A DNA stretch of 64,000 nt from Chloroflexota bacterium (lineage in GTDB: Bacteria; Chloroflexota; Anaerolineae; Anaerolineales; Villigracilaceae): the NCBI GenBank assembly GCA_040754535.1, contig JBFMCC010000023.1, positions 28,570-92,569 on the forward strand, in the 5' to 3' direction. The translations under genes and the position numbers were made by a program. The notes below the pieces were generated by a model, which ran no database searches, was not told the DNA's origin, and saw only the letters and a program-made list of their open reading frames with translations. Each line of letters starts with the position of its first letter. The first letter of the stretch is position 1. Positions 4,286-54,701 of this stretch are shown here, piece after piece.

Positions 4286-4672
4286 ATGCTCCCCCTCCAC
4301 GAAGTCGAGACCTTCCTCCAACATACCCCCGCGCACTTGCAGGAGATCGTGCTGGAATTGCGGAATATCATTGCTTCGGTCGCGCCCGACGCGGTGGAGA
4401 TCGTCCGCTGGGGTGGACTCAGCTACTTCCACGAAGGACGCGGCGGAGTCGTCAGCGCGGGGATGTGTCAGATTGGTATCCACAACGACCACGTCCGCCT
4501 GGCATTCATCCACGGGGCGTTCCTGCACGAGCCGCGCGGACTCTTCGAGGGGACTCAGAAATACAAGCGTTTCATCAGGATCGATTCCTACGACGACGCA
4601 CCCTGGGGCTATTTCAGGGAATTGATTCTGTCCGCGTCCAAATTCGACCCGCGCCTGCTTCCGTCCGAATAA
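4286..4672 (+). CDS. DUF1801 (YdhG-like) domain protein
   Basis: The HLQEIVLELRNIIASVAPDAVEIVRWGGLSYF pattern is typical of DUF1801. ATG 4286 is preferred over the upstream non-ATG start of the listed ORF. Confidence 0.6.
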   Translation: MLPLHEVETFLQHTPAHLQEIVLELRNIIASVAPDAVEIVRWGGLSYFHEGRGGVVSAGMCQIGIHNDHVRLAFIHGAFLHEPRGLFEGTQKYKRFIRIDSYDDAPWGYFRELILSASKFDPRLLPSE

Positions 4673-5622: not shown

Positions 5623-5997
5623 CTAAAGTACATGGCGGGGGAACAATTTCGTCGGTCCATTTTCCTTGAGCCATTGGTTCTTCCGAAACAAACAAAATGC
5701 CCCGCCGTCATACCAACGGGGATGGTTATTGCTGTCGTCGGTCAGATCCTTGATTTGCATCAAAGAAGTGAAGAGCGTATTCGAGAACAGGGGATAAATT
5801 TCATGTCCAAGCGCCCATTTCACTAAAAACTCGTCCATCCGCTGTAATTGGTGTTTACAGTATCTTCTCAATCCTTGAGGGAAATCTGCCCACAGCCTCG
5901 GTTTCACGAGGTCAGGACACGGGCAGAGTTGGCCTCGGTCAAATGATTGAAAGGATACAGAATATAGGAGATTTAAAAACATGATCGCATACCTCAT
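5623..5997 (-). CDS. hypothetical protein in low-GC islet
   Basis: 124-aa ORF in the AT-richer segment upstream of the GT14 gene. No recognisable motif, so it may be spurious. Confidence 0.25.
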   Translation of the reverse strand: MRYAIMFLNLLYSVSFQSFDRGQLCPCPDLVKPRLWADFPQGLRRYCKHQLQRMDEFLVKWALGHEIYPLFSNTLFTSLMQIKDLTDDSNNHPRWYDGGAFCLFRKNQWLKENGPTKLFPRHVL

Positions 5998-6907
5998 CCT
6001 TGTACATCGCTACCCCAACCAGTTCAAAAGACTCTTCAGGGCCATCTATCATCCTGCCAACTATTACCTGATCCATGTGGATAAAAGATCGGGTGTCGGG
6101 TTGCAGAAGGAAATACAGGATTTTCTGGCAGGTTTTTCCAACGCTTCCATGCTGAAGAGTGAAAAAGCCCTTTGGGGAGGATACAGCCTAGTGAATGCTG
6201 AATTGCGCGGCATCAAGGAATTATTGAAGATGGGCTTGAAATGGGAATTCTTCATAAACCTTAGCGCCCAGGATTTCCCTCTAAAATCGCAGGCCTACAT
6301 CCATAACTTTCTTAGTCTGCACAAAGGAAAAGATTTTCTCAAAGTGGCTAATCAAAGCAAGTTCCGCCCCGATACGCTATCGCGCATAGAAAACTATGTC
6401 ACCGAGTCTGGTGATGATATCGTAAACACTCCTGTTCTTAAACGCCCATTCCTTCGAGGCGTGACTCCATATATTGGAAATCAATGGATGATCCTGAGCC
6501 GAAGGTTCTGTGAATTTGTATCCTATAGTCCTGAGGTCGAAAGGTTCAAGAAATTCTATCGGAATACCTTCATCGCGGATGAAGGATTCTTTCAAACGGT
6601 GATCATGAATACCAGTTACAAGGGAATCATCGTGAACGACGATAAAAGGACGATTGACTGGGTGCCGATGGGGACAATAAAATTGCGTCCAAGAGACTTC
6701 ACATCCAAAGATGCTACTTTCCTGATGTCAAGCCAGGATCTGTTCGCCCGCAAATTCGATGAAACTGTTGATGGGGATATCCTGGACATTTTGGAGTCGC
6801 ATCTATCGCCTCCGTCCGCCATACCGGCAAGACGATCCCATTGGCTGGATCGTACGCGCCAAACAGGAAACTTCGCGGCAGAAGCAATCGAATCCAATGC
6901 TGGATGA
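5981..6907 (+). CDS. glycosyltransferase family 14 (core-2/I-branching enzyme, PF02485)
   Basis: MIAYLILVHRYPNQFKRLFRAIYHPANYYLIHVDKRS is a GT14 N-terminal signature. GC is markedly lower (~45%) than the flanks. The last ~35 codons read out of frame through a YdeI-like remnant. Confidence 0.75.
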   Translation: MIAYLILVHRYPNQFKRLFRAIYHPANYYLIHVDKRSGVGLQKEIQDFLAGFSNASMLKSEKALWGGYSLVNAELRGIKELLKMGLKWEFFINLSAQDFPLKSQAYIHNFLSLHKGKDFLKVANQSKFRPDTLSRIENYVTESGDDIVNTPVLKRPFLRGVTPYIGNQWMILSRRFCEFVSYSPEVERFKKFYRNTFIADEGFFQTVIMNTSYKGIIVNDDKRTIDWVPMGTIKLRPRDFTSKDATFLMSSQDLFARKFDETVDGDILDILESHLSPPSAIPARRSHWLDRTRQTGNFAAEAIESNAG

Positions 6908-6992: not shown

Positions 6993-8255
6993 TTAATCGG
7001 CAGGCACTGCCTCCGTTTCCTCATCCGCTTCAATCGCGGACTGGGAGTTGGCGCGTCGGATGAAGAACAGCGCGGGGGTCAGGAGCAGACTCGAGGTCGC
7101 GAGCGAAGCGACCGCGGAACCGAACGCCGCGATCACCGCCACGATGGGACCTCCCAGCATTTGCCCGACGGCGTCCACCTGTCCAAACATCGAGTGGACC
7201 GTGGCGCGAACTTTGGAGTCCAGCCTCTGGTTGATCCACGCGGTCTGCAAGGGGATGTGAACGTCGCGCAAGGCATCAATGACGAGATACAAGGCAAGGC
7301 TGAGAATCAGGAACGGTGAGAGCGCAAAGCCAAGCATCGCAAGGGAAATGCCAGCGGTCACAATGAAGACCGCGCGGCCGATTGCCAACGGACTCGACGA
7401 GTCCACGCGCTTCTCCACGAAACGGACCGCGAGAATGGTGAGAATGGTGCCTGCCACGCGCAACACTGCGAAGAACGCGACCTGATTATTCCCAAAGATG
7501 ACGGGCAACTCAAACGTGTCGAGCAGGTGCTTGACCCACAGGCGGTCGAAGCCTTCGCTGTAGATGCCGAAGAACAGGCCGATGAAGACGATGTTCATCA
7601 GCCGCGGCCTGGCGCGGACCGCCTTCACGCCCTGCCTGAAGGTGTGCAACATGTGCTGCCATGTATTGCGGTCCTCGCGCGGGGTGGGATGGAATCCCGT
7701 CTCGGGCATGACAACCACGAGCGTGACGCCAATGAGCATGACGCCGATTGCGCCAACCTGAATCGGCATGGCGACGTTGCTTGCGCCGACCAGCATGGCA
7801 AGACCCATTCCGGTGAGCGAGGCGAACAAACCGATCTGCGTGGCGCGCAGGAAGAGTTTGTTGGCTTCGTCTTCGCCGATCTCGTCCGTGATCCAGGCCT
7901 GCGTCGCGCCCGATGTAAAGGTGTAACCCAAACCCCAGACGACCTGCGCCAGCAGGATCGGGATGAACGATGGAAAGAGTCCTTCGACGAGAAAGCCCAG
8001 TCCCATCAACACGTAACCGATGATGATGGACAGCCTGCGCGAGTACACGTCCGCCACGATGCCTGTCGGCACTTCGAACACGAACGCGGAGATCTCGAGC
8101 GCCGTCCCGACGAGGATGAGTTGAACAGGCGTCAACCCCGCGACGGTGGCTTCGTACAACGACGTAACAGTAAACATCATCGCAAAGAAGACCGACGCGC
8201 TGAATTCGATGAACAGGTAAACGAATCGCGGATTCAACTTCAAGCGATAAAACAT
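6993..8255 (-). CDS. MFS transporter
   Basis: 420 aa with 12 predicted TM segments and MFS-like loop motifs. Confidence 0.8.
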   Translation of the reverse strand: MFYRLKLNPRFVYLFIEFSASVFFAMMFTVTSLYEATVAGLTPVQLILVGTALEISAFVFEVPTGIVADVYSRRLSIIIGYVLMGLGFLVEGLFPSFIPILLAQVVWGLGYTFTSGATQAWITDEIGEDEANKLFLRATQIGLFASLTGMGLAMLVGASNVAMPIQVGAIGVMLIGVTLVVVMPETGFHPTPREDRNTWQHMLHTFRQGVKAVRARPRLMNIVFIGLFFGIYSEGFDRLWVKHLLDTFELPVIFGNNQVAFFAVLRVAGTILTILAVRFVEKRVDSSSPLAIGRAVFIVTAGISLAMLGFALSPFLILSLALYLVIDALRDVHIPLQTAWINQRLDSKVRATVHSMFGQVDAVGQMLGGPIVAVIAAFGSAVASLATSSLLLTPALFFIRRANSQSAIEADEETEAVPAD

Positions 8256-24358: not shown

Positions 24359-25732
24359 CTACGCGGGCATTTCTACCTTGGGCAGATCCTTCATGGCTTC
24401 CTTCACCGCCTCGGCGGGATACTCGTAATCCTCCAATTCACCGCGCAGGTGCTTCTCGTACGCGCCCAGGTCGAAGTGTCCGTGACCCGACAGGTTGAAC
24501 AGGATGACGCGCTTCTCGCCCTTCCTCTTGGCATCCAGCGCCTCGTCAATGACGGCGCGGATCGCGTGCGCCGACTCGGGCGCGGGGATGATGCCCTCAG
24601 CCTGGGCAAACTGCACTGCCGCCTCGAAGGTGGCCCTCTGGGGCACGGCCACGGCCTCGACCAGGCCCGCGTCCACGAACGCGGACAGGCTGGGCGCCAT
24701 GCCGTGATAGCGCAAGCCGCCGGCGTGAATCCCGGGCGGGACGAAGGAATGTCCCAGTGTGTACATCTTGGCCACCGGGCCCGTCTTGGCCGTGTCGCCG
24801 TAATCGAAGGTGTACTCGCCCTTCGTCAACGACGGCGCGGCGGTCGGCTCCACAGCCAGCAGGCGGGCGCGCTTCCCATCCTTCAGGTTTTCGCGCAGGA
24901 ACGGATAGGCCAGCCCGGCGAAGTTCGAGCCGCCGCCCACGCAACCGACGACCACATCGGGATACTCTCCCGCCATGTCCATTTGTTTGAGCGCCTCTTC
25001 GCCGATCACCGACTGGTGCATCAACACGTGGTTGAGCACCGAGCCGAGGCTGTACTTCTTGGCCCCGCCGGAGGTGGCGGCCACTTCCACCGCTTCCGAA
25101 ATGGCAATGCCCAGCGAGCCGGGGCTGTTCGGGTCCGCGGCCAGAAGCGAGCGTCCGTAGTTCGTGCGGTCGCTGGGGCTGGCAAACACCTGCGCGCCGA
25201 AGGTCTCCATTAACACGCGGCGATACGGTTTCTGCTGGTACGAGACCTTGACCATGTACACTTCGAGCGCAAGGCCGAAGAAATTGCAGGCCATGGCGAG
25301 CGCCGAGCCCCATTGCCCCGCGCCGGTTTCGGTGGTCAGCGCCTTCGTCCCGGCAATCTTGTTATAAAAGGCCTGCGGGATGGCCGTGTTCGGCTTGTGA
25401 CTGCCGGCCGGGGAAACGCCCTCGTATTTGTAGTAAATGTGGGCGGTCGTGTCCAGCGCCTTCTCCAGCCGCCGGGCGCGGATCACCGGGGTGGGACGAT
25501 AGAGCTTGTAGATCTCGCGCACCTCATCGGGAATCTGAATGTAGCGTTCCTGGCTGACCTCCTGCAGGATCAACTCCATCGGGAACAGCACGCCGAGGAA
25601 GTCGGGCGTGACCGGCTCCAGGGTATCGGGGCGCAAGACCGGGGCCGGCGCGACCGGGCTGTCGGCGTTGATGTTGTACCAGAATTTCGGAAGGTCGGCT
25701 TCGGACAAAAGAAAACGGGTTTGGTCGGACAT
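24359..25732 (-). CDS. trpB: tryptophan synthase beta chain-like, TrpB2 type (PLP-dependent)
   Basis: 457 aa. GSHKPNTAI carries the PLP-lysine. The long N-terminal extension is typical of TrpB2. Confidence 0.8.
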   Translation of the reverse strand: MSDQTRFLLSEADLPKFWYNINADSPVAPAPVLRPDTLEPVTPDFLGVLFPMELILQEVSQERYIQIPDEVREIYKLYRPTPVIRARRLEKALDTTAHIYYKYEGVSPAGSHKPNTAIPQAFYNKIAGTKALTTETGAGQWGSALAMACNFFGLALEVYMVKVSYQQKPYRRVLMETFGAQVFASPSDRTNYGRSLLAADPNSPGSLGIAISEAVEVAATSGGAKKYSLGSVLNHVLMHQSVIGEEALKQMDMAGEYPDVVVGCVGGGSNFAGLAYPFLRENLKDGKRARLLAVEPTAAPSLTKGEYTFDYGDTAKTGPVAKMYTLGHSFVPPGIHAGGLRYHGMAPSLSAFVDAGLVEAVAVPQRATFEAAVQFAQAEGIIPAPESAHAIRAVIDEALDAKRKGEKRVILFNLSGHGHFDLGAYEKHLRGELEDYEYPAEAVKEAMKDLPKVEMPA

Positions 25733-26017: not shown

Positions 26018-26160
26018 CAAAAAAACAAAAACATCCATCCCAAATCATGGGACGGACGTCGAATCCGTGGTGCCACCCAGGTTAGGCTGGAACTCACCTT
26101 ACGCAGTACCGCAAGATTTATCCTGCTCTCGATGCAACATGAATGTTGCGGTACTGGCAT
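26018..26160 (-). promoter_or_regulatory. T-box riboswitch leader (tRNA-sensing) upstream of trpB2
   Basis: T-box motif AACCUGGGUGGCACCACGG (plus-strand 26064-26077). An antiterminator (GGG / 7-nt bulge UGGCACC / ACGGA-UCCGU / CCC) can be drawn. The mutually exclusive terminator is a 12-bp stem (26030-26058) plus a U-run, and a Stem-I-like hairpin lies at 26104-26156. Confidence 0.6.
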
Positions 26161-26175
26161 AACATCGGTGATTAA

Positions 26176-26202
26176 CAAAAAATCCCGTTGTGATGCAACG
26201 GG
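26176..26202 (-). terminator. orphan intrinsic terminator on minus strand
   Basis: cccgttg-tgatg-caacggg followed (minus sense) by UUUUUU. No annotated upstream minus-strand gene. Confidence 0.4.
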
Positions 26203-26567
26203 AAGCCAGCCTCACTCTTTGTAGTCCGCTAGTCTGTTGGTCTAAGTGGTCACAGACGACTAAGGGACTTTGCCTTGATAACGGTGGCAATTCCGGCTCG
26301 GGATACTCTCGGCCTGACCATCGGACTAAGCGACTGTCCGACTACCAGACCAATTTCGCCCTGCAACTCGGAGGTCCATTCGGCGTTGTCGTCTCGGGCA
26401 GGACTTTCACCAGACCGCCTGCTCTCTGAATGGCAGGAGCTTCACCTGCCACTTGCCGTCGTACGACGCGTACTCGTCCTCGTCAGCGTTTTTGTTGGGC
26501 GGAATTATACGCCGAACTGTGGCAGTGTCAATCCTTTTGCCGCGCTCTTTTGGAAGAACCTTGTTTC

Positions 26568-26605: not shown

Positions 26606-26677
26606 TGCGGGAGTCGCCAAGCGGTAAGGCGTCAGCCTTCCAAGCTGATATGCGCGGGTTCGAATCCCGTCTCCCGC
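26606..26677 (+). tRNA. tRNA-Gly (anticodon UCC)
   Basis: Acceptor GCGGGAG/CTCCCGC. Anticodon loop CTTCCAA, T-loop TTCGAAT, discriminator T. CCA is not encoded. Confidence 0.85.
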
Positions 26678-26684
26678 TCTCTCT

Positions 26685-26748: not shown

Positions 26749-26821
26749 GGGCTCGTGGCGCAGTGGTTAGCGCAGGCGACTCATAATCGCTTGGTCGCAG
26801 GTTCGAATCCTGCCGGGCCCA
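26749..26821 (+). tRNA. tRNA-Met elongator type (anticodon CAU; tRNA-Ile2 not excluded)
   Basis: Acceptor GGGCTCG/CGGGCCC. Anticodon loop CTCATAA, T-loop TTCGAAT, discriminator A. No initiator features. Confidence 0.85.
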
Positions 26822-26955
26822 CTTTTGATTTAAGCAAATGCTCGCCGGCCCCCATTCAGGGGATGATATCCGAATCCCGCCGGGCCCACTTTTGATTTAA
26901 GCAAGTGCCCGCCGGCCCCCATTCAGGGGATGATATCCGAATCCTGCCCGACCCA
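26822..26955 (+). repeat. two tandem ~67-bp units each ending in a degenerate copy of the tRNA-Met 3' end (att-like scars)
   Basis: cacttttgatttaagcaa(a/g)tgc(t/c)cgccggcccccattcaggggatgatatccgaatcc(c/t)gcc(g/c)g(g/a)ccca repeats the tRNA T-arm/acceptor (ggttcgaatcctgccgggccca). Confidence 0.7.
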
Positions 26956-27047
26956 ATTGGTTTGACATGCTATTGCCGGTTTGTACAGAGCGCGGGAGCA
27001 AAAACGCGGTTCTAAGTCTAAGTTGAAATTGAATTATAAATTGATAC

Positions 27048-27076
27048 TTGACAAATGATTCACGACCTTATAGTAT
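27048..27076 (+). promoter_or_regulatory. candidate promoter for radical-SAM gene
   Basis: TTGACA with TATAGT/TAGTAT 15-17 nt downstream. Confidence 0.4.
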
Positions 27077-27185
27077 TGAACAAGTTTCATTAACTCGTGG
27101 GCAAAATTTTAGTGGTACGGGGATCATTGACTAAACCGGCGAAATCCGGTTCATGAATCTTTTCTGAATTCCATAGGAGTCTCCG

Positions 27186-28430
27186 GTGAAACCCTCATCC
27201 ATCCTTGCCGGAAAAGTATATGTCGAGGCCGTGCATGCTGCGTGTAATCGCAGGAAGCTTGACGCCCAAAAAATTGCGTCGTTTTTTGAAAACAACGGAT
27301 ACAGGATCGTAAGGGACCCGGGGGACGCAGATGTGATGTTGTTGATTACTTGCGCGGTTTCGCTCGAAAGAGAAGCCAGCTCGATAAGCCGGATCCATCA
27401 TCTCAAAAAATACGGCGGGGAGTTAATCGTAAGCGGATGCCTTCCGGCGATAAACAAGCAAAAGTTGTCGTCCGTACACAGCGGAGTCAGTATTCCAACG
27501 TCGGAACTCAGTAAACTGGACGACTATTTCCCGAATATGCAGGTCAAGTTCACAGAACTCGGAGACGCGAACCGCTACTGGCCCTCTTATGAAAAGATGT
27601 TCGGTTATCAGTTCTTCCAGGTCGCCGTTGAGAAAATAAAATCCTTCAGGAGACTGCCGCTTAATTACATTATCAAAAAAGAAATCCCGAGATTAATCAA
27701 CCGAACGATTATAAGGAGGAGTGCGGCGGAGATCGAGCCATTTTCCATCAGAATCTCCTGGGGGTGCAACCACCAATGCGCATATTGCGGTATCCGGTCT
27801 GCCGTGGGTAAATTCCACAGCAAACCGCTGGAAACCTGCCGCGCCGAATTCGCCGAGGGCCTGAACAAAGGTTACAGAGAATTCGAACTGATAGCGGACG
27901 ATGTCGGGGCCTACGGCGTTGATATTGGCAAGACATTTCCAGATCTCTTGAATTCCCTGCTCGATGTAAAGGGTAATTACACTATCCAAATCTGGAATCT
28001 CTCCCCTATATGGCTGGTCAAATACCAGGAGGCTTTTGCTCCAATCCTGAAAACGAAGAAAATCAGCGGAATCCATTATCCCGTCCAATCCGGCAGTGGA
28101 AAAATGCTTAAAGCCATGAATCGATACAGCAACGTGGAAAAGATCAGGGATTCGGTGAGGTTTTTAAGAAAGCATTTCCCTTCAATCTCAGTGACCACCG
28201 ACCTGATTGTCGGATACCCTGGAGAGACCGACGAAGACGTTACGGCAACCATCGAGTTTCTCGGCAGTGCTGATTTCGATATCGTCCATATCTTCACATA
28301 CAAGGATGTTCCGAATACGATCGCCTACGCGGCGCAGGATAAGATACCCCCCAATATTATCGAACAACGGGTCAGCAGGCTCCAGCATGGACTGGACGCA
28401 ATGAGCACAGACTATTTAGTTATTGCCTGA
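27186..28430 (+). CDS. radical SAM methylthiotransferase-like enzyme (MiaB/RimO family, no TRAM domain)
   Basis: N-terminal MTTase Cys triad (AACNRR, ITCAV, SGCLP). Radical-SAM motif ISWGCNHQCAYC. ~50% GC. The C-terminus is too short for a TRAM domain. GTG start with an AGGAGT RBS. Confidence 0.75.
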   Translation: MKPSSILAGKVYVEAVHAACNRRKLDAQKIASFFENNGYRIVRDPGDADVMLLITCAVSLEREASSISRIHHLKKYGGELIVSGCLPAINKQKLSSVHSGVSIPTSELSKLDDYFPNMQVKFTELGDANRYWPSYEKMFGYQFFQVAVEKIKSFRRLPLNYIIKKEIPRLINRTIIRRSAAEIEPFSIRISWGCNHQCAYCGIRSAVGKFHSKPLETCRAEFAEGLNKGYREFELIADDVGAYGVDIGKTFPDLLNSLLDVKGNYTIQIWNLSPIWLVKYQEAFAPILKTKKISGIHYPVQSGSGKMLKAMNRYSNVEKIRDSVRFLRKHFPSISVTTDLIVGYPGETDEDVTATIEFLGSADFDIVHIFTYKDVPNTIAYAAQDKIPPNIIEQRVSRLQHGLDAMSTDYLVIA

Positions 28431-28594
28431 TTGGACGCAAAAACATGGTCAAGCCTGCATTCAAATCAATTTCTCGGCAACAATGTAAAGTACAGAAAAG
28501 GGCGCCGCGGAGACATGTGACTGCGTGCGACGCCCACTGCCGTGGCGGGCTGGTACCACATAGTCACCCATAGTGGAAAGACGTAAAAAGCGAC

Positions 28595-29518
28595 ATGATG
28601 AAAAATATCATTCCCCCGAGCGACCAGCCATCGGCATATAACATGTATGAGAACGTGGAATACTCGGAATATTGGAATGTCGCATATAGGAGGAAGCTCA
28701 ACGAACTGGAACATGCCATTGTTCAAGAATTATTGCCTGCGGCAGGCAACCGCATTCTCGATCTGGGTTGCGGCTATGGCAGGATGGCCGATTGCTATCT
28801 TGGTCGCTTCCGGGATGTCGTGATGTTCGACGGCTCCTTATCTCTGCTACGAACCGCGCAAAAAGTGACCGACGGGAAAGCGTATTATGTAGTGGGAGAT
28901 ATTAACTACCTCCCCTTTCATCCCGCCACATTTGACAACATACTGATGGTCCTAGTGCTTCACCATCTGACCGAACCGGCACGATGTTTGGATAATATTG
29001 GCAAAGTGATCTGTAAGGGCGGACGCTTTGTGATGACTTACAGGAACAAAAGAAACGCTCTATGGATGGCAAAATACCTTGTGGGGGCATTGCATGGGAA
29101 CCCGTTCACCAAAGAACCGCTCCTCCTGGAGGCCAACATATTCAATCATCATCCTGCTTACATAGCGGAGTTGATGACCGCCGCTGGCTTTGAAAGCCTT
29201 ACATATCGCGGGGCAGGCGTTTTCGACAAGGTCGAAAAATCACTGGGCAGGTTCGCCAAATGGGTGCCGCGCGGTGACTTTTGGACGCCCCTGTTCGGCA
29301 AATTATTCCTGGCCCCGTGGATATTCTGCCGGGGAATCTCCCAGAACAGGGAAACTCTCAGATCTTCCGAGAATGTGGAAAGCCTGCTGGCATGCCCGCG
29401 TTGCAAGTCGGAACTGGAACGTGAAGCAAGCGGGGTCAAATGCATGCGTTGCCGCACTAGGTATCCAAACCTCGATGGGATTATCGACATGAGAATCGAA
29501 CCACAGGCTACTTCATAG
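28595..29518 (+). CDS. class I SAM-dependent methyltransferase with C-terminal Trm112-like zinc ribbon
   Basis: LDLGCGYGRM is motif I. The C-terminal LACPRCKSELE...KCMRCRTRYPNLDGIIDM is a Trm112p-like zinc ribbon. Confidence 0.75.
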   Translation: MMKNIIPPSDQPSAYNMYENVEYSEYWNVAYRRKLNELEHAIVQELLPAAGNRILDLGCGYGRMADCYLGRFRDVVMFDGSLSLLRTAQKVTDGKAYYVVGDINYLPFHPATFDNILMVLVLHHLTEPARCLDNIGKVICKGGRFVMTYRNKRNALWMAKYLVGALHGNPFTKEPLLLEANIFNHHPAYIAELMTAAGFESLTYRGAGVFDKVEKSLGRFAKWVPRGDFWTPLFGKLFLAPWIFCRGISQNRETLRSSENVESLLACPRCKSELEREASGVKCMRCRTRYPNLDGIIDMRIEPQATS

Positions 29519-29715
29519 TTTCATCATCAGCCATGTGCAAAAACCAGTGGGCCACGCATAAGAGGTGTGATGGGGAATGGTATTCCGCATATCTGTAATT
29601 CAACAGGATTCCATCCCGCTCCACAAAGCTAATCACTTACATCTGACCACTATCACGGCTTCTTGAAGGATACGAAAACTGCCATTAAAATCAAATTTTT
29701 AAATTGAAATTTAAC

Positions 29716-29743
29716 TTGACTTTTTTTTTGTAATCAGTATAAT
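29716..29743 (+). promoter_or_regulatory. near-consensus sigma70 promoter (TTGACT, 16-nt spacer, TATAAT)
   Basis: In an AT-rich intergenic region, ~260 nt upstream of the 30001 start. Confidence 0.55.
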
Positions 29744-30000
29744 GTTATTTGCGCTTTTCAAATTTGTTAAGTGGCCTTGAAACAATGAATTGCCCACATT
29801 ATCGGGCTCACACGGTTCAAGATATAAGTGACGTTCATCCATACAGATCTAGACAAGTATTTTGAAAAAGGCTATTGTTTGAGAAGCGATCAGTAAACCG
29901 CCTACAGAGTTAGCCATTACCTCCGCCTTTACACAGTCCAACTCAAATAAGGCGAGTCGTCAAATAAAAAATCCATCTAATTTCACCCGCGGGAGGCACA

Positions 30001-33000
30001 ATGTTCAAGACTATTTCGTTTTTGACCCAGAAGATGGACAACACTATTCAGCGTGTCGCGTTCGGCCCCGTGATCATGGTCCTGGTCCTCCTTTTTGCAG
30101 CCGTTGGGGTACCGACTCAGGATGTTGCGGCACAGGCACCATCCAACAAACCGTTGTTGATCGCCGCCTTTGTGCCCGAAAAGGTGGTATTGATATCACC
30201 GGAAGGAAATATCGGCAACAACTACAATCCTACTTATACATGGAATGCACTGGTTGATGCAGATGAATATACTCTTGGAGTCGTTGGCCCGAACGGGGAA
30301 GATTTGATCTATCAAACGTATGACCAGGCAGATATATGCACCGCCACGATTTGCTCGGTCACCCATCCGCTGACTTTGTCCGGGGGATCGCATACCTGGT
30401 GGGTGAGGGGGAGAAACGTGGACGGGCTCGGTCCGTGGAGCGATCCGATGGTTTTCAGCATTGCGCCCGATACCACCATCACCAGCAACCCGCCGGACCC
30501 GAGTTTCAGCAACAGCGCCACATTCGCTTTCGAAAGCGATGATCCCTCCGCGACATTCGAATGCCAATTGGATGGAGGCGGCTTCAGCGCCTGCACCAGC
30601 CCAATGGATTACACAGGCCTAAGTGACAGCAGTCACACCTTTGAGGTGCGCGCTGTGGAAAGTCATGGCACTCCCGACCCCACGCCGGCCTCCTACACGT
30701 GGCTGGTTGATGTCCCCGTCTGCTACGCCCTGACGCTTAGCCATACCGGCAATGGAAGCGATCCATCAGCCGATCCCGCCAACTCACCGGGCTGTTCGGC
30801 CGGTCAATTCGTTGAAGGCGCGGTCGTGGATCTAACCGCGGCGCCGAATGCGGGCTGGCAGGTCAGTAGTTGGACCGGCACGAACGATAATAACAGCACT
30901 GCCACCAGCAACACCGTCACCATGCCCGCCGGCGCACATGCCGCGAGCGTCAATTACACGCAGATCGAATACACCCTGACGGTGAATACTGTGGGAAATG
31001 GCACGGTGACCAGAGATCCCGACCAGGCCATCTATCACTACGGCGATGTCGTGCAGTTGACCGCGACACCTGCCATCGGCTGGCTCTTCTCCGCCTGGAG
31101 CGGCAGCCTGACCAGCACGGCCAACCCGGTCAACATCACCATTGACGCGAACGAAACCGTTACCGCCACGTTCACGCAGATCGAATACACCCTGACGGTG
31201 AATACTGTGGGAAATGGCACGGTGACAAGAGATCCCGACCAGGCTACCTATCACTACGGCGATGTCGTGCAGTTGACCGCGGCACCTGCCGCCGGCTCGT
31301 CGTTCTCCGGCTGGAGCGGTGACCTGACCGGCTCCGCCAACCCGGTCAATATCACCATTGATGGCAACAAGTCCGTCACCGCCACATTCACCAATATCGG
31401 ATACACCCTGACAGTGAACATCGTCGGCGACGGTACCGTAAGCAGGAATCCTGACCAGGCCTTCTACACCTACGGCGATGTGGTCGAACTGACCGCCGCG
31501 CCGATGCCCGGCTGGACCTTCGCAGGCTGGTCCGGCGGGCTTTCCGGGAACGCAAATCCCGAATCCATCGTAATTGATGAAGATGAAACGGTTACGGCGC
31601 AGTTCCTGACCCTGCCTTTGCTCACCTCACCGCTCAATGGAACGACGCTGCTTTACAACCAGCCGACTTTTGACTGGGAGGATGTAAACGGAGCAATTAA
31701 CTACAGCATTCAGGTTTCCAGGTATAGCAATTTCAGATTGCTCTTGGTGAATGCAAGGGTTACGACCTCGACCTATACCCTCCTCAGGGCACTCCCAGTC
31801 AATACTGTGCTCTACTGGCGTGTCAAAGCCAACGGTGTCGCTTTCAACCTATGGTCCGAAGTACGCACCCTCACTTCCGCCAATCCGCCTTCGCTGCCGC
31901 TTCTGCGTTCGCCAGCCAACAATGCCCTGGTAACGGATTACACGCCGCGCCTCGATTGGGCCGACGTCAGACTCCCGGCAGGGACGACCTTCGATAAATA
32001 CGAACTTCAGATGGCAACGGACAGCGCGTTCACCTCCCCGACCAGTGTGGAGATTGGCGGCCCGGAGACGAACTCCGAGTACACACCCGGCGTCGACCTT
32101 CTTCCCAACACCAGGTATTACTGGCGCGTACGTGCATACAACACAGACGGACAATATAGCGCCTGGTCCACGAGCCGTTCCTTCCGCACGGCCGTCCTGC
32201 CGCCGACGCTGCTGGCCCCATCGGACGCTGAGATACTGCTCAACAAACGTCCGACCTTCGATTGGGATGATGTGGCGGGCGCGACCTCCTATACCATCCA
32301 GATCTCCACCGCCCAAAACTTCATGCCCGTCAAGATCAATGCCACCGTGACCACCTCGACGTTCACGCCGACGATTAACCTGATGGCTGACACCCTGTAC
32401 TACTGGAGAGTGCGGACCAACGCCGTCAACGGGCCGAGCGTGTTTTCCGAAGTCTGGTCCTTCACGACAGGCAACCCGCCCTCCACGCCTGCCCTGGTTG
32501 CTCCGGCCAATAACGCCCTGCTCACCGATTACACGCCGTTGTTGAACTGGTCCAATTCCACCCTGCCGGCCGGGACGACCTTCGATCATTACCAGTTGCA
32601 GATCGCAACGGACGCCGCCTTCGCAAGCCTGGTCGTGGATGCCAACGTGGGCGCGGGAGACATTACCGCCTCGGAGTACAGCCCGACGACCGACCTGGCC
32701 GCCAACACCAAGTTCTACTGGCGCGTGAGAGCCGTGAACAGCGACCTGGAATACAGCGCCTGGTCCGTCAGCCGTTACTTCCGTACGGTCCTCCTGCCGC
32801 CGACCCTGGTTACCCCGGCCGATCTGGACATCCTCTCCGGCCCGCTCCCGACGTTCGACTGGGAGGATGTGACCGGCGCATCCAGTTACACCATCCAGGT
32901 GTCGAGGAACCCCACCTTCACCCAGTTGGTGGTAAACAGGACCGTTGCAACCTCCACGTACACTCCCGTTTCCAACCTGCCCCTTAACATCACTCTCTAC

Positions 33001-33072
33001 TGGCGGGTCAGGACGAACGGCCCCAACGGGCCAAGCCTGTGGTCGGAAGTGAGGTCGTTCACGCTTCAATAA
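30001..33072 (+). CDS. large secreted repeat protein: InlB B-repeat (Listeria/Bacteroides repeat) domains plus ~6 FN3-like repeats
   Basis: GGGAGG RBS and an N-terminal signal/TM. Four YTLTVNTVGNGTV...WSG...ANPVNITID...VTATF units. Six ~95-aa repeats end YYWRVRA...WS..R.F.T. Confidence 0.8.
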   Translation: MFKTISFLTQKMDNTIQRVAFGPVIMVLVLLFAAVGVPTQDVAAQAPSNKPLLIAAFVPEKVVLISPEGNIGNNYNPTYTWNALVDADEYTLGVVGPNGEDLIYQTYDQADICTATICSVTHPLTLSGGSHTWWVRGRNVDGLGPWSDPMVFSIAPDTTITSNPPDPSFSNSATFAFESDDPSATFECQLDGGGFSACTSPMDYTGLSDSSHTFEVRAVESHGTPDPTPASYTWLVDVPVCYALTLSHTGNGSDPSADPANSPGCSAGQFVEGAVVDLTAAPNAGWQVSSWTGTNDNNSTATSNTVTMPAGAHAASVNYTQIEYTLTVNTVGNGTVTRDPDQAIYHYGDVVQLTATPAIGWLFSAWSGSLTSTANPVNITIDANETVTATFTQIEYTLTVNTVGNGTVTRDPDQATYHYGDVVQLTAAPAAGSSFSGWSGDLTGSANPVNITIDGNKSVTATFTNIGYTLTVNIVGDGTVSRNPDQAFYTYGDVVELTAAPMPGWTFAGWSGGLSGNANPESIVIDEDETVTAQFLTLPLLTSPLNGTTLLYNQPTFDWEDVNGAINYSIQVSRYSNFRLLLVNARVTTSTYTLLRALPVNTVLYWRVKANGVAFNLWSEVRTLTSANPPSLPLLRSPANNALVTDYTPRLDWADVRLPAGTTFDKYELQMATDSAFTSPTSVEIGGPETNSEYTPGVDLLPNTRYYWRVRAYNTDGQYSAWSTSRSFRTAVLPPTLLAPSDAEILLNKRPTFDWDDVAGATSYTIQISTAQNFMPVKINATVTTSTFTPTINLMADTLYYWRVRTNAVNGPSVFSEVWSFTTGNPPSTPALVAPANNALLTDYTPLLNWSNSTLPAGTTFDHYQLQIATDAAFASLVVDANVGAGDITASEYSPTTDLAANTKFYWRVRAVNSDLEYSAWSVSRYFRTVLLPPTLVTPADLDILSGPLPTFDWEDVTGASSYTIQVSRNPTFTQLVVNRTVATSTYTPVSNLPLNITLYWRVRTNGPNGPSLWSEVRSFTLQ
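30961..31392 (+). repeat. two near-identical tandem 216-bp intragenic repeats (72-aa InlB B-repeat unit)
   Basis: 30961-31176 vs 31177-31392 differ at only a handful of positions. Confidence 0.85.
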
Positions 33073-33208
33073 GTTGACTGGCAAACTCCATGCAGGGCCG
33101 CGTTTTATGAGGACGCGGCCCTGTCATGGAAAAAACCGTCCCATGGCGGATGGCAACCGCCGACAGAAGAGAGCGCCCCGAAGAGCAAACCCGGCGCTCG
33201 ACATCGAA

Positions 33209-33238
33209 ACGCCGCGCTGAAATGCGGCGTTTTGTGTT
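33209..33238 (+). terminator. intrinsic terminator downstream of large repeat protein
   Basis: acgccgc-gctgaaat-gcggcgt + tttgtgtt. An additional GC hairpin at 33094-33122 has no U-tract. Confidence 0.6.
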
Positions 33239-33271
33239 ATTAAAGGCAAATCCCGCCCACAGGATCCAACC

Positions 33272-33973
33272 ATGAACAACTATATTGCGCTTGTGATCAC
33301 GTTCCTCGTTGCCGTCGCCTTCCTGCGCCTGATGGACTTTATCGCCCAGCGCGGCTGGATCGAAAGCAGGATGAGCCGTAAACTCATCCACATCGGTACC
33401 GGGCCGATCTTCGTACTTTGCTGGCTGATGTTCTCCGACGTTCAAAACGGACGCTGGCTGGCCGCGTTGGTCCCGCTTCTCATTACGGCACAGTTCGTTT
33501 TAGTCGGCACAGGGGTCATTAAAGACGAGGCGGCTGTGAAAGCCATGTCGCGCACGGGCGACCGCCGCGAGATCCTGCGCGGACCGTTGTTCTACGGCAT
33601 CGCCTTCGTCGCATTGACGTTGATCTACTGGAAGGATTCCCTGATCGGCATCCCGGCGTTGATGATCATGTGCGGCGGCGACGGGATCGCGGATATTGTC
33701 GGCCGCCGCGTTAATTCTCCCAGATTGCCCTGGTCGCCTGAAAAAAGCCTGCTGGGCTCGGTCAGCGTGTTCGTTGGCGGATGGCTGTTGACCATGTTCA
33801 TCTTCGCCGTCTACGTGTGGATGGGAACCTTCAGCGGACCGATCACTCGATTTCTACTGCCCGTCACCGGGATCGCTCTGGGCGCGACCCTGGTCGAGTC
33901 CCTGCCCTTCCGGGATGTGGACAACCTGACCGTTACCATCGCCGCCGCCCTGCTGGGTCACTTGCTATTTTAG
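33272..33973 (+). CDS. CTP-dependent polyprenol/phytol/dolichol kinase family membrane protein
   Basis: Multi-TM. C-terminal MCGGDGIADIVGRR...SLLGS resembles the VTE5/Sec59 GDGxAD motif. Confidence 0.6.
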   Translation: MNNYIALVITFLVAVAFLRLMDFIAQRGWIESRMSRKLIHIGTGPIFVLCWLMFSDVQNGRWLAALVPLLITAQFVLVGTGVIKDEAAVKAMSRTGDRREILRGPLFYGIAFVALTLIYWKDSLIGIPALMIMCGGDGIADIVGRRVNSPRLPWSPEKSLLGSVSVFVGGWLLTMFIFAVYVWMGTFSGPITRFLLPVTGIALGATLVESLPFRDVDNLTVTIAAALLGHLLF

Positions 33974-34978
33974 GACCGGCTTCAACGCCTCGGCCAGGAT
34001 CTCCGTAAACACAATCCTGCCGGCCTCGTTCAGGTGCAAATTGTCTGCGAACAGGGCCGGGACGAGGCGTTCGTCGCGCGAAAAATCGAGGAACGGAATC
34101 CCGCGTTCGTCCAGGTAGGAAGCGAGGTCGTCCATGTAGGTCTTGAGGCCGGGCGGTTCGGAGTCAAATCGCAGGGTGCGGGCGCGCACGAAGATCAGTT
34201 GAATGCCGTTCTCGCGGCACAGGCGGACGATCTCCGGCAGAAAGGAATCATCCACACTGGCGTCGAAATCGAGGGCGCGCGGCGTGTAAAGATAGGCTTC
34301 CGCGGACGCGACCGCCTCCGCCAGCAGATTCGCCTCGAGATTGGCGGCCCGGAACACGGCGTCCATCGCGCCGTTGGTGCAGGCGGCGTCGCATTGCAGG
34401 AACAGACGGGGCGGGGTGTAACGAATGCCGGCGTCCAGCGATTTGCGCAAATCCAGGCGGGCGCCGTAGACCGGCAGGTAGGCTTCGGCCAGTTTTTCGA
34501 GGGGATTCATCCGGTTGACATAGGCGCGTTCGATGAACACGAGGTCGTCCGGCGCGGCGTACTCGTCAATGGGGATGAAGTAACTGCCGTGCACGCGATA
34601 GCCCGGAAGGGTGAGCATGGTGTCGCGGAACAGCATGATGAGCGCCCGCGGCTTACGCTCCGCTTCGACGATATTGTTTTCCAATACCAAATACCACAGC
34701 GCAGACGCCGACCCGCTTGCCCTGACGCTGTATATTTCCACTCCCAGAGCCGTGGACAGCACGGCCGCGTCCACGTCGGCCTGAAGAAGCGAATCTCCCA
34801 GCATCACGATCTGGGTGGGGGTCTGTTCGAGGACTCTCCTGACAGTCTGGCGGACGAACGCGTCCGGTTGCAGGCCCAGGGCGCGGGGGTAGCCGGGCTG
34901 GTAACGCGCTTGAACGTAAACGGACAGCCCGCCCGACAGGATCAGCAGAAACAGTACGTATCGGCGGAATGCTTTCAT
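33965..34978 (-). CDS. SGNH/DltD- or AlgJ/AlgX-like O-acyl transfer accessory protein, membrane-anchored
   Basis: N-terminal TM, with LGDS near the N-terminus. Paralog of 37149-38168. Adjacent to the MBOAT gene. Confidence 0.55.
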   Translation of the reverse strand: MKAFRRYVLFLLILSGGLSVYVQARYQPGYPRALGLQPDAFVRQTVRRVLEQTPTQIVMLGDSLLQADVDAAVLSTALGVEIYSVRASGSASALWYLVLENNIVEAERKPRALIMLFRDTMLTLPGYRVHGSYFIPIDEYAAPDDLVFIERAYVNRMNPLEKLAEAYLPVYGARLDLRKSLDAGIRYTPPRLFLQCDAACTNGAMDAVFRAANLEANLLAEAVASAEAYLYTPRALDFDASVDDSFLPEIVRLCRENGIQLIFVRARTLRFDSEPPGLKTYMDDLASYLDERGIPFLDFSRDERLVPALFADNLHLNEAGRIVFTEILAEALKPVLK

Positions 34979-45594: not shown

Positions 45595-47385
45595 TTATTC
45601 TAAGGCTCTTACTTGCCAAACCTCCTTGGCAAGAGCTAATAAAATTTCGTGACGCCTCTTTATTGCTTCTTTACCCCATTCAGAAAAGCTTTGAAGGTAC
45701 TCATTTACTCGATTTATTGAGGTGTTGTCTCCGACGCTTTCGAGGTTGGCTATAGATTTCGTCAAGTAAATGTTTGATTTTGCATACTCCTTCACCTTAT
45801 CAGTGAAAAAATCCCTTTGAATAGATTCGTTAATCGGTTTTTCCAATAATGTTAAATTTCCTAACCTAGTCATATAATCATTGTACTCAACCTTATTCTC
45901 ACCTGAAAAATCTAGCACCATCTCCGTAGTAGGATCAACAGGCAGGATATGCTCAATATGTATTGAGGGTTTTAAATACGCCGCAATTGAACGGCTACTT
46001 TCATCGCCCATTCTTCTGGAGTCAAGGTATTGGGCAATTTTAGCTAAGAGATATTTTAGTTTATATTTCTGCATTGAGGATAATCTCAGATCCATGAAAT
46101 TCGTCTCAAAAGATCGGGCTCTGTTTTCAACATCTGTTCTAATTCTGCTTGCAATAAATTCATTTAGATTCTTATTGTTTTTGATCTTTCGTATTTCCTC
46201 AGTCCAAACAGAGAACTTCTTTTCAACATCGCGAGGCGCTTCTTTCGTGATATTGTAATAAAAGAGCAAAGTTTCTAACTGTACGAGCAAATGATCAAAT
46301 TGCTCCGGCTTCAGTCCTTTTGCTGAAAGGAGTAGTATGAAGTGTTGTTTAAATCCGCTACCAACCAAATTGTTAATATTTTCAAGATTGACATTGTCCA
46401 TGTTATGATATCGATTCCTTATTATGTCCATGTAAAATTCAGCGCCCTCCTGCATCCTTCTTACTAATCCAAAAGTGTCCGACTGGTAATTCAGTTTCTT
46501 CTCGTTACTAGTAAGCCAAGAGTAAATCTCATCCTCCCTAAGAATCTTGTCGCTTTTATCATCTTTTTCAATTTCATAATTTGCCATCATAAAATACCGT
46601 AGAAATCTCAATGGCTTTTCTTTCTCTCTTTGGCCAACCAGCGAGTCTTTAAATTTGTTCCACTCAGTTTTTAGTTTAGAGAACTCGTCACGGGAAATAT
46701 TACGAAATAACAAGTTCTTTAGTAGATCAACCTGATCTAAGCTAATTCCTCTTTCGTTTATGGTTTCAAAGATCTTTAGCGCATTGCCAATTTCAGGGGT
46801 CTCGATTTGGATTAGGACGACATTGTTGAGGAAATATCCAATGAATCTGCCCTTTTGCTCCATGTCATCTTTAAAATACTGCTCCAATAAAAATCGCACG
46901 GTTTTATGCGCCTCAAAAATAGTCTTTCCCGGCAACCCTTCGATCATCTTCAGATCAATTTCATCATCATTTTCTTTCTCGCACAAGTCGTAAAAAACGT
47001 TTTTTCCTTCGTACTGAATATCCACTTTGTACGATTGGATAGTCTTACCCTCGGAATTGATTGTTTCATCCCAAAGGAGCTTATGCAAAGCGCCCGAGTG
47101 TTGTGGTCGCTTTAGATTATTAATTATTAACGACAAAGTTATGAGCCTTTGTTGTCCATCAATTACCTCAAATTTATGTGGTGCTTCTTTTACTTTACAG
47201 ACAACTATGCTGCCAAGAAAATAGTCTGCCTTGGGATTGCTTGAAAAACTGTCGTAAATGTCATTGATTAGTTGTGTTACATGTCCTTCTTGCCAAACAT
47301 ATTCCCTTTGATAATCTGGGATCTGATAAAAGTTTTCGAACAGTTTTTGAATTGCGAACTGATTGAAAGTGATAGTGTTAGACAT
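45595..47385 (-). CDS. DUF262/DUF1524 protein, GmrSD-family type IV (modification-dependent) restriction endonuclease-like
   Basis: N-terminal DYQREYVW and VIDGQQRL (DUF262 DGQQR). C-terminal HIEHILP...LGNLTLLEKPINES (His-Me finger, DUF1524). ~35% GC versus ~65% in the flanks. Confidence 0.8.
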   Translation of the reverse strand: MSNTITFNQFAIQKLFENFYQIPDYQREYVWQEGHVTQLINDIYDSFSSNPKADYFLGSIVVCKVKEAPHKFEVIDGQQRLITLSLIINNLKRPQHSGALHKLLWDETINSEGKTIQSYKVDIQYEGKNVFYDLCEKENDDEIDLKMIEGLPGKTIFEAHKTVRFLLEQYFKDDMEQKGRFIGYFLNNVVLIQIETPEIGNALKIFETINERGISLDQVDLLKNLLFRNISRDEFSKLKTEWNKFKDSLVGQREKEKPLRFLRYFMMANYEIEKDDKSDKILREDEIYSWLTSNEKKLNYQSDTFGLVRRMQEGAEFYMDIIRNRYHNMDNVNLENINNLVGSGFKQHFILLLSAKGLKPEQFDHLLVQLETLLFYYNITKEAPRDVEKKFSVWTEEIRKIKNNKNLNEFIASRIRTDVENRARSFETNFMDLRLSSMQKYKLKYLLAKIAQYLDSRRMGDESSRSIAAYLKPSIHIEHILPVDPTTEMVLDFSGENKVEYNDYMTRLGNLTLLEKPINESIQRDFFTDKVKEYAKSNIYLTKSIANLESVGDNTSINRVNEYLQSFSEWGKEAIKRRHEILLALAKEVWQVRALE

Positions 47386-53771: not shown

Positions 53772-54701
53772 ATGAAAAGGATGCTACTCGCTTTCATACT
53801 TATCATTTTGGCCTGTGCACCGATTCACATTGCACCAACAGTAGTTTCTTCTCCCACAACCTTGCCTACACTTGAATATACTCCCACGCCCATTCCACCT
53901 AGCAGGACACCCATTCCAGCCCACACGCGCACAGCGACGCCATATCCCGATGAAATTATGGACCAGCACGGGTTACCCATGCACTTGGTTCCCGGGGGGG
54001 ATTTCGTGATGGGTAGCGACAGAGGGCTTCCGAATGCCCAACCTGCCCACACCGTCAGGGTGGACACTTTTTATATGGACATGTTTGAGGTGGCAAACAT
54101 ATTCTATAACGAATGTGTAGAGGCGGGTGCATGTCAAGCACCCAAGAATGTGGAGTATTTTGAAAAAACCAAGTACGCGTTTTATCCAGTAGTCTATGTG
54201 GATTGGAGTATGGCAGAAACATATTGCAAGTGGCGTGGAGGCCGCTTACCTACAGAGGCAGAGTGGGAAAAAGCAGCGCGTGGTACAGATGAGCGTACAT
54301 ATCCATGGGGGGAAAACGTTAATTGTCGATATGCAAACTATATGTATTACCATGATGACCCGTTCTATATGTTTTGTGTGGATGACCTGTCATCCGTCGG
54401 CTACTCTGAAGCGGGGAAAAGTGCTTACAACATATATGACATGGCTGGCAATGCAACAGAGTGGGTCAGCAGCCTATATCTTCCCTATCCCTATGAACCA
54501 ACCGATGGGCGTGAAGACCCTAATAGCCCCGGCGAGCGTGTTGTGCGGGGAGGATCATGGTCAAGTAGCTCTACTGAGATTCACTCTTATCGTCGATTCG
54601 CCATGTCGCCGGCGGACTCAAGTGACCGGCTTGGTTTTCGTTGCGTTATCAATCCCGATTCATTGCCTGGAGCACCACAATTGCAAAGCATGATTCCCTA
54701 A
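53772..54701 (+). CDS. formylglycine-generating enzyme (FGE/SUMF1) family lipoprotein
   Basis: Lipobox ILAC. FGE-sulfatase domain with RGGSW. GC is lower than the flanks. Confidence 0.75.
   Translation: MKRMLLAFILIILACAPIHIAPTVVSSPTTLPTLEYTPTPIPPSRTPIPAHTRTATPYPDEIMDQHGLPMHLVPGGDFVMGSDRGLPNAQPAHTVRVDTFYMDMFEVANIFYNECVEAGACQAPKNVEYFEKTKYAFYPVVYVDWSMAETYCKWRGGRLPTEAEWEKAARGTDERTYPWGENVNCRYANYMYYHDDPFYMFCVDDLSSVGYSEAGKSAYNIYDMAGNATEWVSSLYLPYPYEPTDGREDPNSPGERVVRGGSWSSSSTEIHSYRRFAMSPADSSDRLGFRCVINPDSLPGAPQLQSMIP

Follow-up and report, generated by a model that had tools for sequence, protein, structure and literature searches.

The stretch of DNA analysed here, 64,000 nt from a Chloroflexota bacterium (contig JBFMCC010000023.1 of assembly GCA_040754535.1) and referred to below as the window, carries directly downstream of a tRNA-Gly and a tRNA-Met gene the coding sequences of a radical S-adenosylmethionine enzyme (rSAM), a class I methyltransferase (MT) and a 1023-aa repeat-bearing surface protein (Table 1). 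A preliminary description of the sequence had taken 26956-33240 as a single low-GC island, possibly acquired horizontally as a three-gene cassette. The origin, the true extent and the likely function of the rSAM and MT genes, called the cassette from here on, are the subject of this work.

The left boundary of the cassette is set by the tRNA-Met gene. The last 21 nt of this gene occur at 26804, 26871 and 26938, three matches where 0.15 would be expected by chance, which bears out the attachment-site-like (att-like) repeats of the preliminary description. The first repeat unit spans 26804-26870, the second (26871-26937) is 96% identical to it, and the third consists of the core only (26938-26958). 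A sigma-70-like promoter precedes the rSAM gene, and both its TTGACA and its -10 box are kept in 4/4 lineages, within DNA that is only ~60% identical. The rSAM and MT genes stand 165 nt apart in the window and 50 nt apart in the relative L004, with flanking intergenic DNA 25-60% identical. A riboswitch or leader upstream of the rSAM gene was rejected: Rfam gave no match there at E<=1, and RNAalifold applied to the 5' untranslated region (UTR) of the four lineages gave -1.4 kcal/mol and no covariation. On the right, an intrinsic-terminator-like hairpin stands before the next gene, as first described.

Table 1. Features of the tRNA-Met locus, in window coordinates (dS, synonymous divergence)
Feature	Coordinates	Strand	Basis	Remarks
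tRNA-Gly (UCC)	26607..26679	+	ARAGORN; Rfam, 68.1 bits	Conserved left flank
tRNA-Met (CAU)	26749..26822	+	ARAGORN; Rfam	3' end is the left boundary; presumed recombination/integration site
tRNA-Met 3'-end repeats, three tandem copies, 67-nt period	26804..26958	+		21-nt core and 46-nt spacer
Cassette promoter, sigma-70-like, TTGACA-17-TAGTAT	27048..27076	+	Boxes conserved in four lineages	Followed by a 5' UTR of ~110 nt
TRAM-less methylthiotransferase-like radical-SAM enzyme (rSAM)	27186..28430	+	Pfam, TIGR profiles, alignment, AlphaFold2 (AF2)	414 aa
Class I SAM methyltransferase (Methyltransf_11) with C-terminal Trm112p-like zinc ribbon (MT)	28595..29518	+	Pfam, motif alignment	307 aa
Spacer	29519..30000	+	GC profile, identity scan	Lowest GC (0.40); right edge of divergent block
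Surface-gene promoter, TTGACT-16-TATAAT	29716-29743	+		Conserved; within 83-nt block
Secreted/anchored repeat protein	30001..33072	+	Pfam, self-scan, dS	1023 aa; resident, outside cassette
Intrinsic-terminator-like hairpin after the 1023-aa gene	33205..33234	+		12-bp stem, 7 GC pairs, T-rich tail

Composition separates the two enzyme genes from their surroundings. GC content is 0.40-0.53 over 26,750-30,250, compared with ~0.59-0.65 on either side, and by gene it is 0.485 for rSAM and 0.508 for MT, while the 1023-aa gene reaches 0.585 and the neighbouring PALP-family, 233-aa, 337-aa and MBOAT genes have 0.641, 0.588, 0.618 and 0.601, respectively. The ~50% GC first given for the enzyme genes was therefore correct, although the flanks lie at ~60-64% and not at 65%. 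GC content at third codon positions (GC3) is 0.59 in both enzyme genes versus 0.73-0.85 in the neighbouring genes. The tetranucleotide profile, proposed earlier as a check, is not uniform, with the 3-kb segment 27,001-30,000 ranking second most atypical of the 64 kb (z=2.8). The atypical segment is thus limited to ~26,940-30,000, some 2.8-3.0 kb with two genes; the proposed island does start at the tRNA-Met repeats, but the anomaly ends at ~30,000 and leaves out the 1023-aa gene, which is backbone-like in GC, GC3 and dS. Cassette alleles are low in GC (0.47-0.53) in all lineages compared, whereas a homologous rSAM and methyltransferase pair in L006 has the same GC as its host (0.60-0.67), so that the family as such is not inherently low in GC. 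By composition the most foreign block of the window, above 27,001-30,000, is the gene of a GmrSD type IV restriction endonuclease at 45-48 kb (45595-47385, minus strand; GC 0.37, GC3 0.40, z=3.5). Other low-GC genes are one for a Core-2/I-branching-type glycosyltransferase (5981-6907, plus strand; GC 0.46) and an unannotated 309-aa open reading frame (ORF; 53772-54701, plus strand; GC 0.49, GC3 0.47).

Comparison with close relatives, labelled Anaerolineales, pointed to the same boundaries. Four close lineages have the cassette site, namely the window, L004 (metagenome-assembled genome (MAG) GCA_037445635.1, its arrangement reproduced by the independent Logan contig L005), L173/L176 and L174, and synteny was taken from exact-protein look-ups. 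tRNA-Gly lies at the same place in L004, L173, L174, L176 and the more distant relative L178; L173/L176 and L174 also carry tRNA-Met and rSAM at this site, and the tRNA-Met repeats are present in 2-3 copies in relatives. Gene order in L004 is identical to that of the window, and its backbone proteins are 89-99% identical to their window counterparts, compared with 71% for rSAM, 73% for MT and 84.5% for the surface protein. In a sliding comparison, nucleotide identity between the two is 88-94% until the end of the tRNA-Met repeats, falls to 65-79% within both enzyme genes with spacers that can barely be aligned, and is back at 81-94% from ~29,950 onward. The break points are therefore the end of the repeats and a position ~50 nt 5' of the start codon of the surface protein, and since the divergent block matches the compositional one, the evolutionary island consists of two genes.

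The depth of this divergence is clearest at synonymous sites. Between the window and L004, dS is 0.28-0.46 in ten backbone genes and 0.42 in the surface gene, but 1.54 in rSAM and 2.02 in MT. Among all lineages the backbone is star-like (dS 0.32-0.57), whereas the rSAM alleles fall into two groups, {window, L173/L176} and {L004, L174}, with dS of 0.65-0.68 inside a group and 1.5-2.7 across the two. The window and L176 thus differ by 0.68 in rSAM where the window and L004 differ by 1.54, while the PALP-family, 233-aa and MBOAT genes give 0.32-0.46 for both pairs. For MT, dS is 1.5-2.8 in every lineage pair, and in L174 this gene is absent and the downstream region different. The more distant L178 has both tRNA genes followed by 6 kb of unrelated cargo (GC 0.40-0.50) and then the 233-aa gene, whose product is 82% identical to that of the window. 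Two 38-nt copies of a tRNA-Met 3' half (4578-4617 and ~7835-7870) flank blocks of hypothetical low-GC genes within this cargo, and they match the window-type tRNA-Met rather than the tRNA-Met of L178 itself, as expected of scars brought in by a mobile element. A second replaced segment is found nearby: the 337-aa SGNH-like gene beside MBOAT (33965-34978, minus strand) has a divergent allele in L176 (10694-11707) at a dS of 1.3, whereas the window and L004 differ there by 0.28.

The same gene order in relatives had been named in advance as an observation that would speak against an island, and it was indeed found in four or five close lineages. That order, the position of the genes, and a dN/dS (dN, nonsynonymous divergence) of ~0.1 in both enzyme genes (0.11 for rSAM to L004; 0.06-0.11 for MT between lineages), which marks them as functional, could all belong to a vertically inherited core operon, in which low GC and divergence would follow from weak codon bias and fast evolution without any exchange, since genes of low bias gather more synonymous change. 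We consider such an operon very unlikely, as dS in the cassette reaches 4-7 times the backbone value, the grouping of rSAM alleles contradicts the star-like backbone, the break in identity falls exactly at the tRNA repeats, and L178 has different cargo in the same interval. Conserved order here hides the replacement of alleles, and gene order consequently does not refute the island. Atypical composition, incongruent alleles and the cargo of L178 together lead to a hotspot with replaceable cargo, and the earlier proposal of horizontal acquisition is supported in part, for the two enzyme genes, which are foreign in composition and lie in a variable interval.

We are therefore confident that the interval 3' of tRNA-Met is a recombination/integration hotspot in this clade of Anaerolineales-type Chloroflexota, and that in the present genome it holds a low-GC rSAM and MT cassette of ~2.8-3.0 kb with its own promoter, present as deeply diverged, swapped allele classes under purifying selection, next to a resident 1023-aa gene. 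The swaps probably came about either through homologous recombination in the conserved flanks or through site-specific events involving the tRNA-Met repeats. Repeat copies within a genome (26804-26958 in the window, 7670-7770 in L004, 224-310 in L173) are more alike than orthologous copies, as would fit concerted evolution, or duplication that occurred independently, where recombination is active.

Several observations weigh against a mobile cassette of this kind. The 67-nt repeats could be a plain tandem duplication. No further copy of the tRNA-Met 3' end occurs in the 64 kb at <=3 mismatches, leaving the cassette without a distal att site, and no integrase or recombinase was found among the two domain-supported ORFs at 26.95-30.0 kb or elsewhere in the window; with both lacking, either mechanism of exchange named above is putative. 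The lower codon bias of the cassette genes inflates their dS somewhat. No empty site was found. A scan of one genome per species with the PALP-family protein gave 80 loci (66-86% identity), none of which keeps any neighbouring gene, and is thus uninformative on both empty site and synteny. All sequences compared are MAGs or metagenome contigs, and the window itself is a mosaic relative to L001 (contig JBMOMQ010000024.1 of GCA_049324815.1), so that some strain mixing in the assemblies may have occurred. Identity to L001 is 97% overall; within the 17.2-38.2 kb compared it is 100% across 24.9-33.2 kb and 73-95% in patches at 17.5-18.6, 21.7-24.4 and 35.4-38 kb. The window is therefore a sister genome, and the mosaic arose either from homologous recombination that is frequent among these bacteria or from a mixture of strains in the MAG assemblies. 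The rSAM and MT proteins have exact copies on the L001 contig and on an independent Logan contig, and the Logan contig L002 is 100% identical to the window over 26915-30986, which reproduces the junctions in an independent assembly.

The rSAM protein has the UPF0004 (PF00919, E 6.5e-13) and Radical_SAM (PF04055, E 2.3e-17) domains of the methylthiotransferases (MTTases), and its auxiliary-cluster cysteines (Cys20/56/85) and radical-SAM cysteines (Cys194/198/201, CX3CX2C) are invariant in 27 sequences that include canonical MTTases. Neither PF01938 nor PF18693, the profiles for TRAM, matches the protein; profile alignments end near position 360 of 416-437, the protein stops 5-10 residues further on, and in the alignment its C-terminus falls where the TRAM of P0076, P0085 and P0086 starts. 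The TRAM-less, MTTase-like identity first proposed is thus correct. An insert of ~50 aa between the two domains (residues ~130-185), which canonical MTTases do not have, is predicted with low confidence to be helical. Scores lie below the curated cut-offs for TIGR00089 (237.5 bits, cut-off 251) and for the equivalogs TIGR01578 (214.6/314.7), MtaB (193.7/357), RimO (188/357) and MiaB (157/355). The AF2 model (mean confidence, pLDDT, 85.7) has MtaB, RimO and MiaB as its best folds, at template modelling (TM) scores of 0.70-0.75, and the best sequence match in the PDB is RimO (4jc0, E 2.5e-42).

All four characterised MTTase clades are three-domain proteins with TRAM (PMC2952846; bioRxiv 10.1101/717249), which serves as the RNA- or substrate-docking domain common to them, and every characterised MTTase acts on tRNA or on ribosomal protein S12 (PMC2952846). 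The SFLD MTTase subgroup (MiaB, RimO, MtaB and e-MtaB) is defined by this three-domain layout. Our literature search on TRAM-less or 'MTL'-type MTTases and on MiaB-like enzymes in polysaccharide or natural-product clusters returned only this four-clade, three-domain description and nothing on the present clade. The clade comprises at least ~69 protein clusters and 210 JGI metagenome loci, with TRAM absent throughout. About 36 clusters are 52-100% identical to rSAM and belong to Chloroflexota/Anaerolineales where the source gives a name, and ~30 more, archaeal MAGs among them, are at 33-41%; the JGI scan returned only the group at 34-41% identity and so gives the context of that group, not of the Chloroflexota subgroup.

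The MT protein is a Methyltransf_11 enzyme with a ribbon motif, CPxC...CxxC...YP..DGIIDMR, at its C-terminus, conserved in 6/7 aligned partners. The fusion to Trm112 claimed for it agrees with this motif, but the score against Trm112p (PF03966) is weak in the window protein (17.4 bits, E 0.004, cut-off 22); the L008 paralogue passes that cut-off (28.5 bits). An orthologous, ribbon-bearing MT follows rSAM in the window clade and in L008 (51% identical), whereas the methyltransferase after rSAM in L006 is non-orthologous (22% identical, no zinc ribbon) and none follows it in L174 or L010. A search for Trm112-fused bacterial methyltransferases in the literature found no description of the present clade. 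Both enzymes are unusual, as first supposed, and uncharacterised.

Our main rival reading of these architectures is that the two enzymes are accessory modifiers of the translation apparatus, with rSAM methylthiolating a tRNA, an rRNA or a ribosomal protein without TRAM and the Trm112-like methyltransferase methylating the same target. The MTTase fold and motifs, the Trm112p-like ribbon, the match of MT to a PHROG family named 'tRNA methyltransferase' (E 6e-12) and the adjoining tRNA genes agree with it. We nevertheless regard it as rather unlikely: TRAM, shared by the four characterised clades, is absent (PMC2952846), equivalog scores are far under their cut-offs (157-215 versus 315-357 bits), and in their variability, exchangeability and foreign composition the genes differ from those of housekeeping modifiers. 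Homologues moreover lie in glycan and acyl-CoA clusters, and outside the window clade none has a tRNA neighbour.

Those neighbourhoods bear on the likely substrate. In L008 the rSAM and orthologous MT genes sit within a tightly packed glycan operon together with GT2, UDP-sugar dehydrogenase, GT4, FemAB-like, ATP-grasp and pectate-lyase-like proteins; L011 is an archaeal sugar-modification cluster (polysaccharide deacetylase, GT4, DegT aminotransferase, epimerase), and L012 holds another rSAM with BcrAD/DUF2229 and CTP_transf_1 proteins. Across 67 loci the recurrent neighbours are TRAM-less paralogues (up to three in tandem), class I methyltransferases (15 loci), SDR, SPASM-rSAM, GNAT, FemAB-like, ECH, thiolase, DUF35, HGD-D/BcrAD, polyprenyl synthase, GT28, ATP-grasp and beta-helix proteins, with gcvT and gcvH in a few. 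Among distant TRAM-less homologues, three tandem paralogues are found in L099 and L159, gcvT/gcvH neighbours in L111 and L163, and thiolase, DUF35, ECH and HGD-D neighbours in L140 and L165. None of the homologue contexts points to RNA, and the acyl-CoA/isoprenoid and gcvT-gcvH contexts hint at sulfur insertion into aliphatic chains. The position of homologues between gcvT and gcvH prompted us to consider LipS1/LipS2 lipoyl synthase, an identity that was rejected since both of those proteins are biotin-synthase-like and not MTTase-like. A biosynthetic cluster for a ribosomally synthesised and post-translationally modified peptide was also rejected, as no small precursor ORF beside rSAM is conserved among the intergenic small ORFs of the lineages compared.

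The rSAM enzyme appears to have kept both [4Fe-4S] sites and the MiaB/RimO/MtaB fold, to have lost the TRAM docking domain and to have gained a basic helical insert. With both cluster sites and the MTTase fold kept, it most likely performs the same chemistry as MiaB, RimO and MtaB, in which a 5'-deoxyadenosyl radical would abstract hydrogen and the auxiliary cluster would then supply the sulfur or methylthio group for insertion. Methylthiolation by MTTases uses two SAM in each turnover. A nucleic acid is an improbable substrate; the most plausible candidates are glycans of the cell envelope, lipid or acyl groups and other small molecules. Methylation would fall to the partner methyltransferase, which could cap the new thiol or O-/N-methylate the same substrate, and the product would be a decoration that varies between strains. 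Diversifying or balancing selection on such a decoration would explain both the persistence and the movement of old alleles. From architecture and neighbourhood, we tentatively propose that rSAM and MT carry out radical sulfur or methylthio insertion and methylation of a glycan, lipid or acyl-type substrate, a proposal that we rate at somewhat less than an even chance. Four points weigh against it. By sequence, RimO is the nearest enzyme of solved structure, and its target is a protein. The cassette of the window clade is not within a glycan operon. The L006 and L174 arrangements mean that the pair is not obligatory, and an obligate, conserved rSAM and MT pair was partly rejected on those grounds. 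Trm112-type partners, finally, classically serve methyltransferases of the translation apparatus.

A conflict, defence or small-molecule toxin/immunity module in a defence-island-like hotspot would also suit a tRNA-linked, low-GC site at which old alleles are exchanged between strains, and HicAB adjoins the genes in L006, while the GmrSD island lies elsewhere in the window. We hold this to be highly improbable. In PADLOC-DB v2 the only match of rSAM is to PDC-M51A at E 0.0044, and that of MT is to the generic methyltransferase part of mad2; rSAM has no meaningful PHROG match, no nuclease, ATPase or effector is present, and homologues are embedded in biosynthetic operons (L008, L011). A defence-system or phage origin was accordingly rejected on the PADLOC and PHROGs results. 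The explanation as a whole, that is, an exchangeable cassette together with the enzyme function proposed above, is in our judgement the best available and slightly favoured over its negation.

The 1023-aa protein has a hydrophobic N-terminal signal/anchor (residues 16-37), four PF18998 stretches (Flg_new_2, InlB B-repeat; E 6.7e-54), with self-scan repeats at residues 242-304, 324-394, 396-466 and 468-536, and six Ig/FN3-like (Ig_Rha78A_N-type) repeats. Both kinds of repeat agree with the first description, although 'giant' overstates 1023 aa. Repeat number varies, the L173 protein having 824 aa. In the preliminary description this protein shared one cassette with the two enzymes, and one could suppose that the three genes were acquired together and that rSAM and MT modify the 1023-aa protein, for example by RimO-like beta-methylthiolation and subsequent methylation. 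In the window, L004, L173 and L176 the three genes lie side by side, the protein-modifying RimO is the best solved-structure match by sequence, and dN of the surface protein is raised (0.088-0.137 across comparisons, 0.088 to L004). Joint acquisition is nonetheless quite unlikely and the single cassette does not hold, for the surface gene has the GC3 of the backbone (0.73) and a backbone dS to the closest lineage (0.42 versus 0.28-0.46), the divergence break falls between it and MT, and rSAM occurs without such a protein beside it in L006, L008, L010 and L174. The surface gene also has a separate promoter within an 83-nt block (29687-29769) of the spacer, conserved at 84-86% in otherwise divergent DNA. 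Relative to the L176 lineage, dS of the surface gene rises to 0.68-0.76. The surface gene is fast-evolving resident DNA with its own promoter, not a member of the cassette.

Further resident genes follow. The 233-aa membrane protein (33272-33973, plus strand) has no Pfam match, has >6000 homologues at E<=1e-20 and is named by sources as a phytol/diacylglycerol/polyprenol kinase-family protein; this polyprenol/phytol-kinase-like gene and the SGNH-like, MBOAT and PIG-L deacetylase genes form a resident envelope-modification cluster, which adds to the case for a substrate other than RNA. Upstream of the tRNA genes, a T-box-leader-like RNA (26045-26495, minus strand) scored 66.6 bits (E 2e-13), short of its gathering score of 93. 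A perfect TTGACA-16-TATAAT promoter (26531-26504, minus strand) precedes it, and downstream lies the 457-aa PALP-family gene (24359-25732), whose product resembles TrpB2. The T-box-like leader and its promoter account for the lower-GC, gene-less stretch at 25.75-26.55 kb.

What is of interest here is an uncharacterised, TRAM-less branch of the MTTases and the replacement of its cassette at a tRNA-Met hotspot; the surface-protein part of the earlier claim is ordinary. Retention of the two-cluster machinery, loss of TRAM and repeated occurrence in operons for glycans, isoprenoids and acyl-CoA, whether in Chloroflexota, archaea or sediment lineages, point towards a class of substrates new to radical sulfur insertion. 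The clade also supplies defined candidates for biochemical work, among them the operon of L008, which is self-contained. More speculatively, and we think it doubtful, the TRAM-less clade might be a fifth functional MTTase-type class that adds sulfur or a methylthio group to substrates which are neither nucleic acid nor ribosomal, for instance glycans, lipids or acyl chains, and the cassette of the window clade would then be a portable unit for strain-specific surface thiomethylation whose ancient alleles diversifying selection would maintain. In uncultured Anaerolineales, the locus is a clean natural case of a tRNA hotspot at which alleles have been replaced, and it cautions that conserved gene order is not the same as vertical inheritance.

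Compared with known systems, rSAM shares the three UPF0004 cysteines, the CX3CX2C core and the fold with RimO, MtaB and MiaB (PDB 4jc0, 9a6d and 7mjw; TIGR00089), but it is without TRAM, has the ~50-aa insert, scores below the curated cut-offs, and is accessory and exchangeable rather than housekeeping, with a separate methyltransferase as partner. Likewise, the MT ribbon has the CPxC...CxxC...YP..DGI.DMR motif of Trm112/YcaR-type zinc ribbons (PF03966) at the C-terminus of a methyltransferase, though fused in cis to a class I enzyme instead of forming a separate activator subunit, and with a Pfam score under the cut-off in the window protein. The locus resembles tRNA-linked islets and integrative elements in that the cassette abuts a tRNA 3' end with direct repeats of that end, is foreign in composition and is replaced by different cargo in a relative; unlike those elements, it has neither a mobility gene nor a distal att site, and its repeats follow one another at a 67-nt period instead of enclosing the cargo. 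The L178 cargo does have distal copies. Variable surface-polysaccharide or glycosylation loci of the O-antigen or capsule type, where recombination across conserved flanks replaces the clusters, differ from the cassette, which consists of two genes without glycosyltransferase, flippase or polymerase and is linked to glycans only through distant homologue context (L008, L011), but they share with it a low-GC block between conserved flanks and ancient alleles that are under purifying selection and incongruent with the backbone.

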